Source: an uncultured Verrucomicrobiae bacterium (GTDB taxonomy: Bacteria; Verrucomicrobiota; Verrucomicrobiia; Chthoniobacterales; UBA10450). From it: 64,000 bases of DNA. Of the stretch, positions 27,001 through 30,000 are shown one piece after another. The stretch spans positions 512,001 to 576,000 of the forward strand of contig CAVWPA010000001.1 of NCBI GenBank assembly GCA_963756875.1, written 5' to 3'. Position 1 is the stretch's first letter, and each line of letters starts with the position of its first letter. Position numbers: made by a program.

Positions 27001-30000
27001 GAACCGGAGATTCCGCATTCCATTTTCGAGATTCCCGGCGCCCGGGAATGTGCGATTGAGCTGCGCAGTTTCTCCAAGAACGGCGGGTTCACCGGCGTGC
27101 GTTGCGGCTTCACCGTCGTGCCGAAAACGCTGCTCGGCCGCACAGAGTCAGGGAAAAAATTGCCGTTGCATCCGCTCTGGAATCGGCGCTGGAGCACAAA
27201 AGCGAACAGTGTGAGTTATCCCGTTCAGCGCGGAGCGGAAGCATTGTATTCTCCGGAAGGCCGCCAACAGGTGCGCGGACTGATCGACCATTACATGGGG
27301 AACGCGAAAATCCTCCGTGAAGCTTGCGCCGAAACCGGCATGCTTGTTTTCGGCGGGGTAAACGCGCCTTACATATGGGTGAAAACCCCGAGTGGCCGCA
27401 CCAGTTGGCAGGTATTCGACCAAATGTTACGCGAGCTGAATGTAGTCGTTACTCCGGGAAGCGGATTTGGCGCGCAAGGAGAAGGGTATTTTCGCGTCTC
27501 CGCCTTCAACAGCCGAAGTAATGCCGAAGAAGTAGCGCGGCGGCTTCGAGCGCTGGCGTAATTGTAATCAGGAGCAAGAGCAAGAGCATGAGCATGAGCA
27601 TGAGAAGGGTTTTCCTCCTCCTCCTGCTCATGATCGACGGAGGGTCCGACCGACATCTCCCCTTGCGCTACAGGCTCGGTAGGTAACATTCCCCTTTTTG
27701 GGAAAGAAGTCAGCGTGTCCGAATCGAAGCAAAATCTCCTCCAGCTCTATCGCTTTTGTTTTTTGATGCTGGCCGACGCGAGCAAGGCGGAGGAGGTTTT
27801 TCACGCTACGCTGCGACAAGCCGCACAGAATTCAGCGGCGGGCGAACCTCCTCGCGATCGCCTGTGGTTTTTCCGCGATGCCCGCTGGCGATGTCTGGAA
27901 GCTGGCGAACAAGGTCTGCAGGCTGAAGATGTCGAACTGGAGGAGGAGCAGATCGCTCCCTCGGCGTCGGCGCAAATCGAAAAACTTGAGCCGGCACAAC
28001 TCGCGATCTGGATTGCCGCTGCCTCGGATCCCCAGCGAACAGCGCTGGCCCTGTTCTATCTCGATGAATTCAATGACGCGGAATTGCTTTCGGTCTGCGA
28101 ACTGAAACCGGTGGAGCTGGCAAAATTGCTCTCGGAAGGACGCCATCAATTTCAAGCCTGGCTCAATGCGACAATGCCCGTTACCGAGACATGATTGCCT
28201 TGTCCCGCCGCCACCGTTTGTTTCTCCAATTCGCCCCGATCAGTGAGGAGCGGGTGCGGGATCGCCGCATGCGAGTTGCGTTGCACCGCGCGCGCAAGGA
28301 CGAAGGATTTGCCGCGCAACAGAATTTCGATCGCGCGGTTGCGGCGCTCGTTCGCGCGATTCCGATCCCTCAGCCAATCACAGATTGGGTTCCGGAAGAG
28401 ACGCTCATTTCGGCGCCACAACGCCCATGGAAAAAATACGCGCAACACCCGGCGATTGTCGCCACCGCGATCGCCGTTGCGGTGATTGCCGGTGTCTTCG
28501 TGTTTCATGTGATCGACAATCTGAATGATTTTCCAAACGAAGATACCGCGCGAAAGTTGCTGGGAGTGGCAAGCTCGACACGGTCACTGGTTCTTGATCC
28601 GGTGAAGACGGATGCCGGAGAACTCGGCGATCTCTTCTTCATGAAATATCGGCTGGAACATTATGATGTGCCGCCCGAGTTCGCCGACTTTCGGACATTG
28701 GGTTACCGCGTTTTTCCCGATGAGGAAGCGCAGCGGGTCGCCCAGATCTGGGTAGTCGAGAAGCGCATGCAGTTTTTTATTTTTCGAGCCGAGAAAGACC
28801 CCAAAACAGGCGCGCCGCGGGAATTTTCAGGCTGGCGTTATGTGGAGCAGGAAGGATGGGCCGGCGTGATCGAAGAGCGCAACGGCATTTGTTTTATGGC
28901 GGCCATGCGCGGGCGGGAAAAAGATCTGGCGCCGTATATCGCGAAAAAAAGCGATTAGATTCGGCTTTGGGAAAGCCGTGCAGGGCCAACGTTGACTCTT
29001 CGTCATAGGCCATTCAACTTTGTGCCGCCTGCCAGGGTGGCTCAGCGGCCTGCTCGCGAAGACTTTCGGAGTAGAGCAGCCCGAAAGTATTCGGGGTTGG
29101 TCGCGCGGAGTTTTGCCTGGTATTCTTTGAACGAAATTGTTGCCAGGGTAGCTCAGCGGTAGAGCAGGGGACTCATAAGCCCTTGGTCGGGAGTTCAATT
29201 CTCCCCCCTGGCACTTTTTACGCAATGGCTTGGGTTTACATTATTCGCGGTTCGTCAGGCCGACACTACATTGGTTCCACAGTCGATCTCGACGCGCGAT
29301 TCGCCCAGCATTTACGTGGTCATACTGCCACAACCAAGCGACTCGGCGAGATGCTTGAGATCGTCGCAAAAAAAGAATTTCCAACTTTGGCTGAAGCTCG
29401 AAAAATCGAGCGCTCATTGAAACGAAAAAGGAATCCAAAGCTCGCAATTTATCACTTGCGGCAGTAGAGCAGCCCCGAAAGCTTTCGGGGTTGGTCGGGA
29501 GTTCAATTCTCCCCCCTGGCAGGTTTTTGAATAATGGCCTGGGTTTATATTCTCCGCGGCTCCTTAGGCAGACACTACATCGGTTCCACGGTCGATCTCG
29601 ACGCACGGTTTGCGCAACATTTACGCGGTCATACTGCAACAACCAAGCGACTCGGTGGAAAGCTTGAAATAGTTGCCAAAAAAGAAGTTTCAACGCTGGC
29701 TGAAGCTCGAAAAATCGAGCGCTCATTGAAACGAAAAAGGAATCCAAAGCTCGCAATTTATCACTTGCGCCAGTAGAGCAGCCCCGAAAGCTTTCGGGGT
29801 TGGTCGGGAGTTCAATTCTCCCCCCTGGCACTTTTTTCGAACAATGGCCTGGGTCGATATTCTTCGCTTTCGGAGTTCTCCTACCGGGGCTCTTATTGCG
29901 GATCGGCGAGTGTGGATTGCGGATTGCTTTCGGAATTCTCCCCGGTGATTTTTTAATTGGAGCATTCAAAAATAGAACGCGACGTTGACAGAGTTCGCAG

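Follow-up and report, generated by a model that had tools for sequence, protein, structure and literature searches.

Why are two tiny nuclease genes lined up directly behind a tRNA-Met gene, each closed by a copy of the tRNA's own 3' end, and what has built and kept such an array? The window, by which we mean the whole 64,000-nt stretch of DNA analyzed from an uncultured Verrucomicrobiae bacterium of soil (positions are on the plus strand unless stated), contains only one tRNA called by ARAGORN, a functional elongator-type tRNA-Met(CAT) at 29142-29214 (Rfam tRNA, 67 bits), which is the gene that the survey's finding had placed at contig positions 541142-541214. An ORF had been put 11 nt behind it; the ORF does follow directly, but its first ATG (29225) is 10 nt past the ARAGORN 3' end, after a spacer (29215-29224) that reads without a Shine-Dalgarno-like run. 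Unit 1 consists of GIY-YIG minigene 1 (29225-29467, 80 aa, from ORF call, Pfam and codon-wise comparison) and a 3' module (29464-29521) made of the D-stem strand GTAGAGCAG (29464-29472), the hairpin CCCCGAAAGCTTTCGGGG (29473-29490) and an exact copy of the last 31 nt of the tRNA (29491-29521). Unit 2 repeats this order with a spacer (29522-29533), minigene 2 (29534-29776, 80 aa, same three lines of evidence) and a 3' module (29773-29830; GTAGAGCAG 29773-29781, CCCCGAAAGCTTTCGGGG 29782-29799, tRNA 3' copy 29800-29830). The stop codon TAG lies inside GTAGAGCAG in both units, and the palindrome CCCCGAAAGCTTTCGGGG stands between GTAGAGCAG and the tRNA 3' copy in place of the anticodon arm, both as the survey had described. 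The last 31 nt of the tRNA occur at 29183, 29491 and 29800 with 0 mismatches (none expected by chance, 100 shuffles), so that each unit is indeed closed by such a copy, and Tandem Repeats Finder returned the expected period of 309 with 2.2 copies and 88% matches. Only the first 8 codons (ATGGCCTGGGTCGATATTCTTCGC, 29844-29867; repeat family D3, in a 34-aa ORF starting MAWVDILR) are kept of the third unit, which had likewise been reported as reduced to its first codons, followed by two short repeats, GCTTTCGGAGTTCTCC and GCTTTCGGAATTCTCC, and a T-run (29866-29960, repeat family D5); these repeats are possibly the decayed ends of further units.

The two proteins, for which about 92% identity had been given, are 92.5% identical and both above the Pfam cut-off, the ORFs differ at 30 of 240 nt, and the units of the array diverge by 11% in the repeat analysis. 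The 3' module is the same in both units, with one difference in 86 aligned columns, that one in the ORF end; it is without a 5' acceptor strand and received no tRNA score in Rfam. We rejected the start of the ORF as a mimic of the 5' acceptor strand, because the N-terminus MAW is unchanged behind tRNA-Lys with a different acceptor. An RNA fold of the tRNA and unit 1 paired the 5' strand of the tRNA with the downstream 3' copy, which is uninformative since both 3' copies are identical. A 242-aa minus-strand ORF also spans the array; the codon-wise divergence agrees with the plus-strand frames. No public sequencing run covered half of the stretch and the matching contigs were mostly tRNA pieces of other organisms. 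One 232-nt contig, from a public DNA run that may be the source sample, equals 29405-29636 with no difference and therefore bridges the joint of units 1 and 2.

The Pfam GIY-YIG profile PF01541 matched ORF1 with E 5.6e-14 (52.6 bits) and ORF2 with E 9.7e-13 (48.7 bits; cut-off 22.6) and spans residues 1-72 of the 80 aa, with no extra domain. Seven residues (Y5, Y15, G17, R25, H29, E62, K66) do not vary among 24 sequences, and N70 is almost constant in a 16-sequence alignment; from the family literature, we take Y5 and Y15 (the Tyr of GIY and of YIG), the Arg, the His and the metal-binding Glu E62 to be the catalytic residues. The predicted structure (pLDDT 90.5; strands at 2-9, 14-19 and 44-52 plus helices) has the GIY-YIG fold, a three-stranded sheet with flanking helices. 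The nearest solved relatives in a profile search were the UPF0213 proteins BH0048 (1zg2, E 3.7e-12) and EF2693 (1ywl, E 6.2e-9), with SLX1 (E 2.5e-5) and UvrC-N more distant, and the top rows of Foldseek for the model were UPF0213, HIGLE, SLX1 and UvrC-N, every one with E >0.001. On these matches, the minigene product is a predicted minimal UPF0213/SLX1-like nuclease, a stand-alone catalytic domain in which the DNA-binding domain for site specificity is absent. It shares the profile, the modelled fold and the minimal form with UPF0213 (BH0048, EF2693) and SLX1, and prokaryotic Slx1-like proteins are described as minimal stand-alone GIY-YIG domains in passages of PMC1564403. No tRNA-gene linkage of this group was found in the literature searched, and other UPF0213-like ORFs of the same genomes (L139, L164-L167) are not linked to tRNAs, so the linkage belongs to particular clades.

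Upstream of the tRNA, and new beyond the survey's finding, is a decayed hairpin-bearing pseudo-tRNA (29031-29128; repeat families D4 and D6, alignment with the tRNA and both unit ends). It starts with a 5' acceptor strand and D arm, GCCAGGGTGGCTCAGCGG, then has a 20-23-nt insert resembling the 3' end of the ORF, and continues with GTAGAGCAG, the hairpin variant CCCGAAAGTATTCGGGG, TTGGTCG, a decayed T arm and CCTGGTA. Ahead of it, TTGACT (28992-28997), a candidate from sequence reading at a place where a simple promoter scan made no call, is likely the -35 box of the native tRNA promoter, now in front of the pseudo-tRNA; empty sites in relatives have TTGACA about 30-40 nt upstream of the tRNA. 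The promoter scan found neither a promoter-like nor a terminator-like site inside the array; the ORFs are most likely expressed by read-through from the tRNA promoter. An RNA-library contig of a relative spans the pseudo-tRNA, tRNA and ORF start, with DNA carry-over possible, and RNA-library contigs of relatives reaching the ORF start and 3' module are uninformative on transcription, ends and strand.

Arrays behind other tRNAs in relatives, repeating the 3' part of the local tRNA, had also been claimed, and we found the linkage to be broader, with Met-e, Lys-TTT, Lys-CTT, Pro, Asn, Met-i, Val and Gln tRNAs heading cassettes. A sample of 80 loci, taken from species-representative Verrucomicrobiota genomes with a narrow query alignment and therefore of the Met/Lys type only, had a same-strand tRNA (Met, Lys) upstream of the ORF at 79 loci. 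Among these 79, the gap between tRNA and ORF was <=25 nt in 72, a downstream tRNA 3' copy was present in 71 (hairpin ahead of the copy in 71/71), and a 5' pseudo-tRNA with hairpin lay upstream in 44, two or more of them in 10, sometimes arrayed in units of 78-96 nt. In a set of 27 loci of relatives, the ORF was <=22 nt behind a same-strand tRNA in 24 (the others at 98-129 nt, two loci, and 180 nt, one locus) and a copy of the last 30 nt of the tRNA was present in 23. Pro, Asn, Gln and Val cassettes take D-arm/T-arm pieces from their own tRNA with a different hairpin in each, the repeated tRNA piece varies by lineage from 11 to about 58 nt, and several paralogous lineages reside at different tRNAs within single genomes. 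The hosts are Chthoniobacterales and Candidatus Udaeobacter, as named in the records. Two loci under Alphaproteobacteria/Nitrospirota labels, which would mean spread to these groups, have a tRNA-Met (near-)identical to the verrucomicrobial one, and we read them as mis-binned contigs; one of these bins holds three tRNA-Met contigs. This recurrence of one design, at several different tRNAs and across many relatives, points to a type of small gene cassette residing on tRNA genes that is little known so far.

The distribution of the cassettes is patchy. Of 36 genomes in the host family, 12 gave the query no match, and six of the eight genomes without a match in which the tRNA-Met site was readable had it clean empty. 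Empty tRNA-Met sites were seen in G034, G023, G028, G005, G019 and G029 and occupied sites elsewhere in the family, a presence/absence polymorphism among relatives of the kind expected of a Seg-like free-standing homing endonuclease; two genomes have hairpin scars without an ORF, and one genus has both an occupied and a scar-only site. Two genomes that are 1% apart in the neighbour gene have arrays of different make-up, ORFs were broken in 6 of 93 cases of the 80-locus sample, and ORF-less remnants are also common. The tandem ORFs of the window are both under strong purifying selection, with dN/dS 0.06 at dS 0.59; tandem pairs gave dN/dS 0.057, 0.057 and 0.10 at dS of about 0.6, and dS of tandem copies ranges over 0-0.66. 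Tandem copies are sisters in the ORF tree, which supports their repeated origin inside lineages. The tree needs 21 changes of tRNA identity versus 58.6 when labels are shuffled, so that an ORF clade, judged from the sequences, stays with the same tRNA identity for a long time; this fidelity, together with the finding that distant hosts showed no near-identical ORFs, fits long vertical residence. Distances of the GIY-YIG ORF and its upstream neighbour gave a Spearman correlation of 0.23 (630 pairs, 36 loci), confounded by the short ORF and tandem paralogues, and no clear transfer case emerged among these 36 loci. Of the survey's view that the cassettes multiply at tRNA genes and duplicate their target, a real tRNA-tied family, copies of the local tRNA and repeated tandem origin stand. 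The clade-tRNA fidelity, the purifying selection on both tandem ORFs and the finding of no near-identical ORFs in distant hosts speak against a simple picture of frequent jumping.

We presume, with a probability of about 0.5, that these are nuclease cassettes linked to tRNA genes and expressed by read-through from the tRNA promoter. Recombination between their tRNA-derived repeats would duplicate and delete them and, rarely, give them a new tRNA target, events that the nuclease probably starts. The cassette would be a spacer of about 10 nt, the 80-aa GIY-YIG ORF and the local tRNA copied in disabled form, from D-stem to 3' end, with a 7-bp hairpin standing for the anticodon arm. The ORFs would most likely be co-transcribed from the tRNA promoter and released by tRNA 3' processing, while the tRNA-derived repeats would provide homology for recombination. 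Units would be gained or lost by exchange between 31-nt 3' copies, and this would account for the arrays, for the empty sites and for the remnants without an ORF. Exchange between D-stem copies would collapse a duplicated tRNA-plus-cassette unit to a hairpin-bearing pseudo-tRNA, which would explain the upstream pseudo-tRNAs and their arrays. By analogy with SegB, the nuclease may trigger such exchanges with cuts in tRNA-derived DNA, either at the T-loop or at the long hairpin. Gene conversion may hold the copies identical to the tRNA, and new lineages would begin when, on rare occasions, the conserved D and T boxes let a cassette be copied into a different tRNA gene. Such a cassette may be selfish in nature. 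Several points count against this reading: purifying selection on both tandem copies is more easily explained if each serves the host; unequal crossing-over alone can build arrays from one unit; the functional tRNA has the same T-loop as the copies, so a T-loop cutter would cut the essential gene too; a bare 80-aa catalytic domain has no part that would confer site specificity; the ORF clades keep their tRNA identity, and distant hosts showed no near-identical ORFs; and the hairpin core, which is also present elsewhere in the genome, may be borrowed.

SegB of phage T6 is a GIY-YIG enzyme whose cuts, according to passages of PMC13096335, fall inside tRNA genes and drive a tandem amplification, dependent on recombination, of tRNA-Tyr together with segB, with segB homologues enriched near tRNAs in phages. 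In our own reading, the reverse complement of the SegB cut motif is the T-loop consensus. In T-even phages, segB is a free-standing homing endonuclease gene in the tRNA gene cluster and, like the minigenes, a GIY-YIG nuclease gene located at tRNA genes. SegB is larger than the 80-aa protein and has a DNA-binding part. Seg-like homing endonucleases join the nuclease to a DNA-binding domain for a long site, whereas the cassette protein is the catalytic domain only, of the UPF0213/SLX1-like branch and on bacterial chromosomes instead of in phages. Moreover, the cassette unit repeats a hairpin-substituted tRNA body and leaves the functional tRNA unamplified, and its arrays are old (dS 0.6) and under selection.

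The purifying selection leads to the alternative that we regard as possible, though doubtful: a domesticated host nuclease, acting in repair or tRNA/RNA metabolism, housed in tRNA operons, in which the 3' module would be an element for RNA processing, stability or termination, and unequal crossing-over between the short tRNA repeats would have produced the arrays and pseudo-tRNAs as a side effect. The same origin is assumed for the E. coli tRNA-linked repeats. The dN/dS of about 0.06 in both tandem copies and the long stay at the same tRNA across many genera speak for a host gene; however, its patchiness (12 of 36 genomes without a match, six of eight readable sites clean empty), the paralogous lineages at different tRNAs in one genome, and the common broken copies and ORF-less remnants count against it. 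Tight tRNA-ORF spacing without an own promoter-like site suggests expression built into the tRNA operon, to which the RNA-library contig adds weakly, as DNA carry-over is possible. The hairpin stem is intact in 147 of 167 copies with a variable loop, pairing is preserved in a few copies with both arms changed, and a T-arm hairpin accompanies it, as expected of an RNA element, but the module has no 5' acceptor strand, is not a tRNA by Rfam, and has no terminator-like site in the scan. In addition, a prokaryotic Slx1-like domain fused to a TrmH-type tRNA methyltransferase is known, for which passages of Dunin-Horkawicz et al. 2006 (PMC1564403) suggest a role in RNA metabolism.

That direct repeats of the tRNA 3' end bound the units, as in elements integrated at tRNA genes, raises a recombinase acting in trans, where hairpin and tRNA 3' copy would form an attC-like or att-like site and an integrase from elsewhere would insert and excise circular cassettes, much as happens with integron cassettes or with cis-mobilisable elements at tRNA genes. 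In types A and B, and likewise in the cassettes at Val, Met-i and Gln, a hairpin always adjoins the repeat; the units are arrayed in tandem, and a further ORF is enclosed by tRNA-Gln copies; tandem accretion and an ORF with a hairpin site are likewise shared with tRNA-integrated elements and integron cassettes. We nevertheless consider it improbable, for no integrase or transposase was found among ORFs >=120 aa within about 7 kb, or in or near the 309-bp units. A Pfam scan of 10 ORFs (nine in 21866-36899, plus a minigene at 16530-16792) and two flanking genes gave housekeeping families or nothing, with no tyrosine or serine recombinase in or beside the element. Further, such a recombinase does not predict the upstream pseudo-tRNAs and their arrays or a repeated piece varying from 11 to about 58 nt between lineages, every cassette here holds the same tiny nuclease gene, unlike integron cassettes, and 2.9 million viral contigs held only two weak partial matches.

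The hairpin core also occurs at other places in the genome, with a relaxed pattern giving 39 sites rather than the roughly 55 dispersed copies reported before, and the GIY-YIG protein might mobilise it as in REP/RAYT pairs, with the tRNA loci as mere residence of the enzyme gene. The exact hairpin pattern is present in 28 of the 36 genomes of the cassette-bearing family and in none of 24 genomes from the order's other families. Of the 12 genomes of this family in which no GIY-YIG match was found, 7 lack it, and some cassette-bearing genomes have about 25-30 sites, a correlation that is partly circular since every cassette carries the hairpin and the genomes are related. None of the six Y1_Tnp matches in the own genome had the hairpin within 1.5 kb; that these Y1-transposase-like loci are unlinked to it is a point in favour of this reading. 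We hold this explanation very improbable: G006 and G014 are cassette-bearing yet have no hairpin beyond the cassette's own, other cassette lineages have different hairpins, and the dispersed copies lie in unrelated REP-like flanks with no tRNA pieces, so the hairpin may itself be a borrowed REP-like element. Nor is the enzyme, a GIY-YIG and not an HUH protein, the Y1 transposase flanked by hairpins of REP/RAYT systems. An assembly artefact or functionless decaying junk is hardly credible, because, although the assembly has three contigs and is 87.6% complete and tandem repeats are prone to mis-counting, the units are 11% apart and resolvable by assemblers, a separate contig bridges their joint, 79 of 80 assemblies besides this one show the same design and dN/dS is 0.06.

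The tRNA-linked repeats (TLRs) of E. coli have been known since 1978. They lie directly behind a tRNA or rRNA gene in 1-5 units per locus, each ending at its 3' side in a copy of the final 18-19 bp of that gene, and their function is called unknown, in passages of PMC8144298. The array has the same arrangement, being behind a tRNA with the tRNA 3' copy at the unit end (three exact 31-nt copies, 2.2 units), and ORF-less 142-nt tRNA-linked repeats at tRNA-Cys in the own genome look the same as TLRs, compared by description. However, those passages mention no nuclease ORF for the E. coli units, whereas each cassette unit has a GIY-YIG ORF; the cassettes also repeat 31 nt with a D-stem strand, have a hairpin for the anticodon arm, and have pseudo-tRNAs upstream. 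A bolder extension, which we think unlikely, is that minimal UPF0213/SLX1-like nucleases are the engine of bacterial tRNA-linked repeats and that overlooked selfish cassettes of about 300 bp sit on tRNA genes, use the tRNA promoter and carry a tRNA mimic in which the enzyme's hairpin substrate has taken the place of the anticodon arm. Cutting tRNA-derived DNA would then remodel tRNA loci into arrays, pseudo-tRNAs and synteny breaks behind tRNAs, and the ORF-less repeats (tRNA-Cys here, E. coli TLRs) would be non-autonomous or decayed relatives. E. coli itself has a UPF0213 gene, yhbQ.

The literature searched, from which subscription journals were largely absent, gave no description of GIY-YIG minigenes that are linked to tRNA genes of bacteria and accompanied by tRNA copies. 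The cassettes, if our reading is true, would give the uncharacterised UPF0213 minimal GIY-YIG nucleases a first genomic role, carry the recent phage finding on SegB, tandem amplification at tRNA genes driven by a nuclease, over to bacterial chromosomes, and offer a testable origin for repeats whose function is called unknown in the passages of PMC8144298 cited above. Several essential single-copy tRNA genes carry cassettes, which may therefore shape tRNA loci and downstream gene order, and the swap of a hairpin for the anticodon arm is a compact, conserved design.

In the own genome, five of six minigene loci are behind tRNAs. An Rfam scan of six cassette loci (E <=0.1) returned true tRNAs only, with no family for the 3' module, a 118-nt leader repeat or the 25-nt inverted repeats. 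The leader repeat marks a third cassette type, which is without the tRNA 3' copy. The tRNA-Gln locus with a decayed GIY-YIG ORF framed by 25-nt inverted repeats was found as the survey had described it, and an intact cassette of this inverted-repeat type is present in the window at about 16476-16831 on the minus strand, with its minigene at 16530-16792.

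The only tRNA gene of the window, as called by a tRNA gene search, is tRNA-Met(CAT) at 29142-29214, and two GIY-YIG ORFs of 80 aa follow it, ORF1 (29225-29467), which begins 10 nt 3' of the tRNA, and ORF2 (29534-29776), second in the array. The two proteins are 92.5% identical and each scores well above the Pfam GIY-YIG cut-off. Tandem Repeats Finder reported a tandem array with a period of 309 and 2.2 copies, the third unit having only eight codons left, and the last 31 nt of tRNA-Met occur exactly three times in the window and not at all in shuffles. In both units, GTAGAGCAG stands ahead of the tRNA 3' copy; it is the D stem's 3' strand and contains the TAG stop, and CCCCGAAAGCTTTCGGGG lies between GTAGAGCAG and the copy in place of the 17-nt anticodon arm (D-stem strand, hairpin and tRNA 3' copy are together called the 3' module). 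A contig from a public DNA run that may derive from the source sample spanned the joint of units 1 and 2 with zero differences. Therefore, the tRNA, ORF, repeat, 3'-copy and bridging-contig data show that the survey's description of the tandem array behind tRNA-Met was correct. The genes around the array have housekeeping roles (squalene-hopene cyclase, superoxide dismutase, aminotransferase, L9, DnaB, transketolase), with no integrase or transposase among them, and a simple promoter scan called neither promoter-like nor terminator-like sites inside the array, its sole call being the promoter of rplI, the next gene.

Missed by the survey, a decayed pseudo-tRNA (29031-29128) lies 13 nt upstream of tRNA-Met and comprises, in order, the 5' acceptor strand and D arm, an insert, GTAGAGCAG, a hairpin variant, TTGGTCG and a decayed T arm. 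The insert, of 20-23 nt, resembles the last codons of the ORF. A hairpin-like piece of roughly 21 nt, cctgctcgcgaagactttcgg (29049-29071), lies within the D-loop of this pseudo-tRNA. A near reverse complement of cctgctcgcgaagactttcgg was seen in the hairpin loop of the pseudo-tRNA of a related genome, G006 (locus L003, about 30-100 nt upstream of the tRNA), and such pieces could be nested insertions of small hairpins or remnants of an ORF end. A TTGACT box precedes the window pseudo-tRNA, and TTGACA precedes the real tRNA at the empty sites of relatives. The hairpin core, CCCCGAA-N4-TTCGGGG, recurs 39 times in the own genome, in most cases inside other REP-like palindromes, and forms the centre of several dispersed ones with other flanks (in the window at 2873-2890 and 32244-32261). 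The exact pattern was present in 28 of 36 genomes of the host's family versus 0 of 24 outside it, counts in which the related genomes are non-independent and the cassettes themselves contain the pattern. No hairpin was found near the six Y1-transposase-like loci; the cassette may have taken over a REP hairpin or given rise to one.

With ORF2 as the query, matches were obtained in 27 of 61 related genomes, the own genome included (24/36 in the same family, 2/24 in other families of the order). The ORF starts at most 22 nt behind a same-strand tRNA in 24 of 27 distinct loci, 98-129 nt behind it in two, where an ORF-less remnant unit intervenes, and 180 nt behind it in one; 23 of the loci repeat the last 30 nt of the tRNA downstream. 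We further analysed the best 80 loci of 142 relatives from a scan of species-representative genomes, a sample drawn with the Met/Lys-type alignment that covers only those types and overlaps the 27 loci. By label these are Verrucomicrobiota (Chthoniobacterales, Candidatus Udaeobacter, Spartobacteria, Pedosphaera), except for two with other labels, which we did not accept as non-verrucomicrobial and took as mis-binned contigs, their tRNA-Met being identical or nearly identical to verrucomicrobial ones. A same-strand tRNA precedes the first ORF in 79 of the 80 (54 CAT, one of them Ile2-like, 24 Lys-TTT and 1 Lys-CTT), with a gap of at most 25 nt in 72 of the 79, and 87 of the 93 ORFs in these 79 loci are intact. 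The last 26 nt of the tRNA are copied downstream in 71/79, each time with the hairpin before the copy (71/71), and an upstream copy of the tRNA 5' part and then the hairpin is found in 44/79, ten of which have two or more such copies. Upstream copies are sometimes arrayed in units of 78-96 nt (spacer, tRNA 5' half, hairpin, then 7-12 nt from the start of the T-arm region), and the real tRNA closes the series as its last unit; loci L052 and L118 have about 5-6 each (6 and 5 by listing, 5 and 6 by fuzzy count). G014 contributes one Met-type locus (L008) and one row in alignments A1 and A2, and all conclusions hold without the unpublished genomes G014, G007 (L043) and G002 (L044, L048), nothing resting on L044, in which the anchor was not detected, or on L048.

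The dN/dS of the tandem ORF pair was 0.057 in the window (dS 0.59) and 0.057 and 0.10 in two other genomes, and two more pairs are young or identical; therefore, both copies are kept by selection, and the duplications are of different ages. In the ORF tree, which has 84 columns and many open forks, tandem copies are mostly sisters and clades track tRNA identity (21 label changes versus 58.6 with shuffled labels); three MetI labels within the Met clade are artefacts of the labelling rule, and the Ile2 label of L125 is a genuine Ile2-like tRNA. The two window units have identical non-coding 3' modules, against 30 differences in 240 nt between their ORFs. In the 80 loci, the CCCCGAA/TTCGGGG stem is perfect in 147 of 167 hairpins and the four loop bases vary, a few copies have both arms changed with pairing preserved, and RNAalifold lengthened the hairpin via GAGCAG/TTGGTC to 12 pairs and added a T-arm hairpin. 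From this conservation and extension we infer that the 3' module is functional, as RNA or as DNA. In the protein, Y5, Y15, G17, R25, H29, E62 and K66 are invariant among 24 cassette sequences, and the predicted structure is confident (pLDDT 90.5). Among solved structures it is closest to the uncharacterised UPF0213 proteins BH0048 and EF2693, followed by SLX1, a structure-specific endonuclease, and the N-domain of UvrC; the cassette protein is a bare catalytic domain without a DNA-binding domain.

Among the family genomes without a query match, eight had a readable tRNA-Met site. Six of these are clean empty sites (promoter, tRNA, then the next gene), and two (G036 and G007, locus L043) are scar-only, with the upstream pseudo-tRNA and hairpin and no ORF; G001, of the same genus as G036, has the ORF and lacks an upstream copy. 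On the upstream side of tRNA-Met the neighbouring gene is kept across genera, and on the downstream side it varies (L002, L005, L007, L016, L031, L041, L052, L067): in many genomes it encodes a membrane protein, in the window it is rplI, and elsewhere it is yet another gene; therefore, gene order breaks at the 3' side of the tRNA. In a pair of genomes with a 1% difference in the upstream gene the arrays differ greatly, the first having six upstream units and two diverged ORFs, and the second a single upstream unit with two near-identical ORFs, of which one is frameshifted.

Recombination between the tRNA-derived repeats alone is the simplest and most likely account of all these states. Exchange between tRNA 3' copies would add or delete units, and duplication of a whole spacer-tRNA-cassette segment with its joint in the T arm, followed by D-stem x D-stem exchange in the first duplicated unit, would remove the anticodon arm, T arm and ORF and leave the 5' half, hairpin and T-arm start, as observed. 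This second step explains why every pseudo-copy has the hairpin and never the anticodon arm, and also the ORF-end-like scrap in the window's upstream copy. Locus L118, where an identical 22-nt spacer precedes every unit, shows this step. The nuclease may initiate these events, as its SLX1-like kinship and phage SegB suggest. SegB, a GIY-YIG enzyme, cuts tRNA genes at RAWTSGAAC and causes recombination-dependent tandem amplification of tRNA-Tyr with segB (PMC13096335); in our reading the reverse complement of this site resembles the T-loop consensus. The ORFs would be expressed by read-through, given the tight tRNA-ORF spacing and the missing promoter-like site, and in one relative an RNA-library contig, in which DNA carry-over is possible, covers the pseudo-tRNA, tRNA and ORF start (n=1).

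A serious rival is that a small nuclease beneficial to the host is expressed from tRNA operons, with the 3' module as an RNA element, and the fusion of a prokaryotic Slx1-like domain with a tRNA methyltransferase, described in PMC1564403, points to such a host role. A purely selfish element is disfavoured by the strong purifying selection on both tandem copies, lineages long faithful to one tRNA, the absence of a clear transfer case among the compared loci, a protein without a DNA-binding domain, and the expectation that a T-loop cutter would hit the essential tRNA gene too. Among known systems, E. coli tRNA-linked repeats, whose function is given as unknown (PMC8144298), share position and tRNA 3' copy with the cassettes, SegB shares enzyme class, tRNA link and amplification, and integrated elements and integron cassettes share bounded tandem units. 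None of them pairs, on a bacterial chromosome, the gene of a minimal UPF0213 nuclease with a tRNA copy that carries the hairpin substitution. We found no prior description of this combination in the literature searched, mostly outside subscription journals.

Weaker GIY-YIG matches in relatives lie behind tRNA-Pro(GGG), Asn, initiator Met, Val(GAC) and Ala(GGC). No same-strand upstream tRNA was called for 4 of 21 matches in 16 fetched regions: in one tRNA-Pro is masked by N, in another (L134) the ORF has a hairpin-bearing pseudo-tRNA-Pro on one side and the real tRNA-Pro on the other, in the third a tRNA-Asn 3' copy follows the ORF, and the fourth is a free-standing ORF flanked by short inverted repeats. 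Every cassette lineage copies parts of its own tRNA and carries its own hairpin. Further UPF0213-like ORFs in these genomes are not tRNA-linked, and thus the linkage belongs to particular clades.

The own genome has nine Pfam GIY-YIG matches; eight form six minigene loci, and one in a 538-aa frame is presumably UvrC. Five of the six loci are behind tRNAs (Met, Gln-TTG, Ile2-like CAT, Ala-CGC, Gly-GCC). Those behind the Ile2-like CAT tRNA (C1:661641), tRNA-Ala(CGC) (C1:158320, minus strand) and tRNA-Gly(GCC) (C1:355580) represent a third cassette type, in which a structured-looking 118-nt leader starts from the tRNA's last base and is repeated after an ORF of about 80 aa; at these three loci no tRNA 3' copy was found, and the leader had no Rfam match. 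A second intact minigene of the window (16476-16831, minus strand, about 87-97 aa, Pfam E 7.6e-13) has 25-nt inverted repeats at both ends (CGCGTAAAAGGCTCCACCTCACGCG and a near-complement) and no tRNA nearby, and matches in type the broken copy that follows tRNA-Gln on C3. Downstream of that tRNA (C3:437114, +420 to +1000), two tRNA-Gln 3' copies enclose an ORF of roughly 190 aa whose start looks like a signal peptide; thus, DNA of other kinds can also be framed by tRNA-derived repeats. A pseudo-tRNA without an ORF (5' half, hairpin GGTCGCCACGGCGAC and AGGCCG) lies about 109 nt upstream of tRNA-Pro(TGG) at C2:22892. Behind tRNA-Cys (C3:1739047-1739119, minus strand), over about 620 nt downstream, four to five tandem units of 142 nt each end in the tRNA's last 17-25 nt and carry no GIY-YIG ORF, resembling tRNA-linked repeats of the E. 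coli type.
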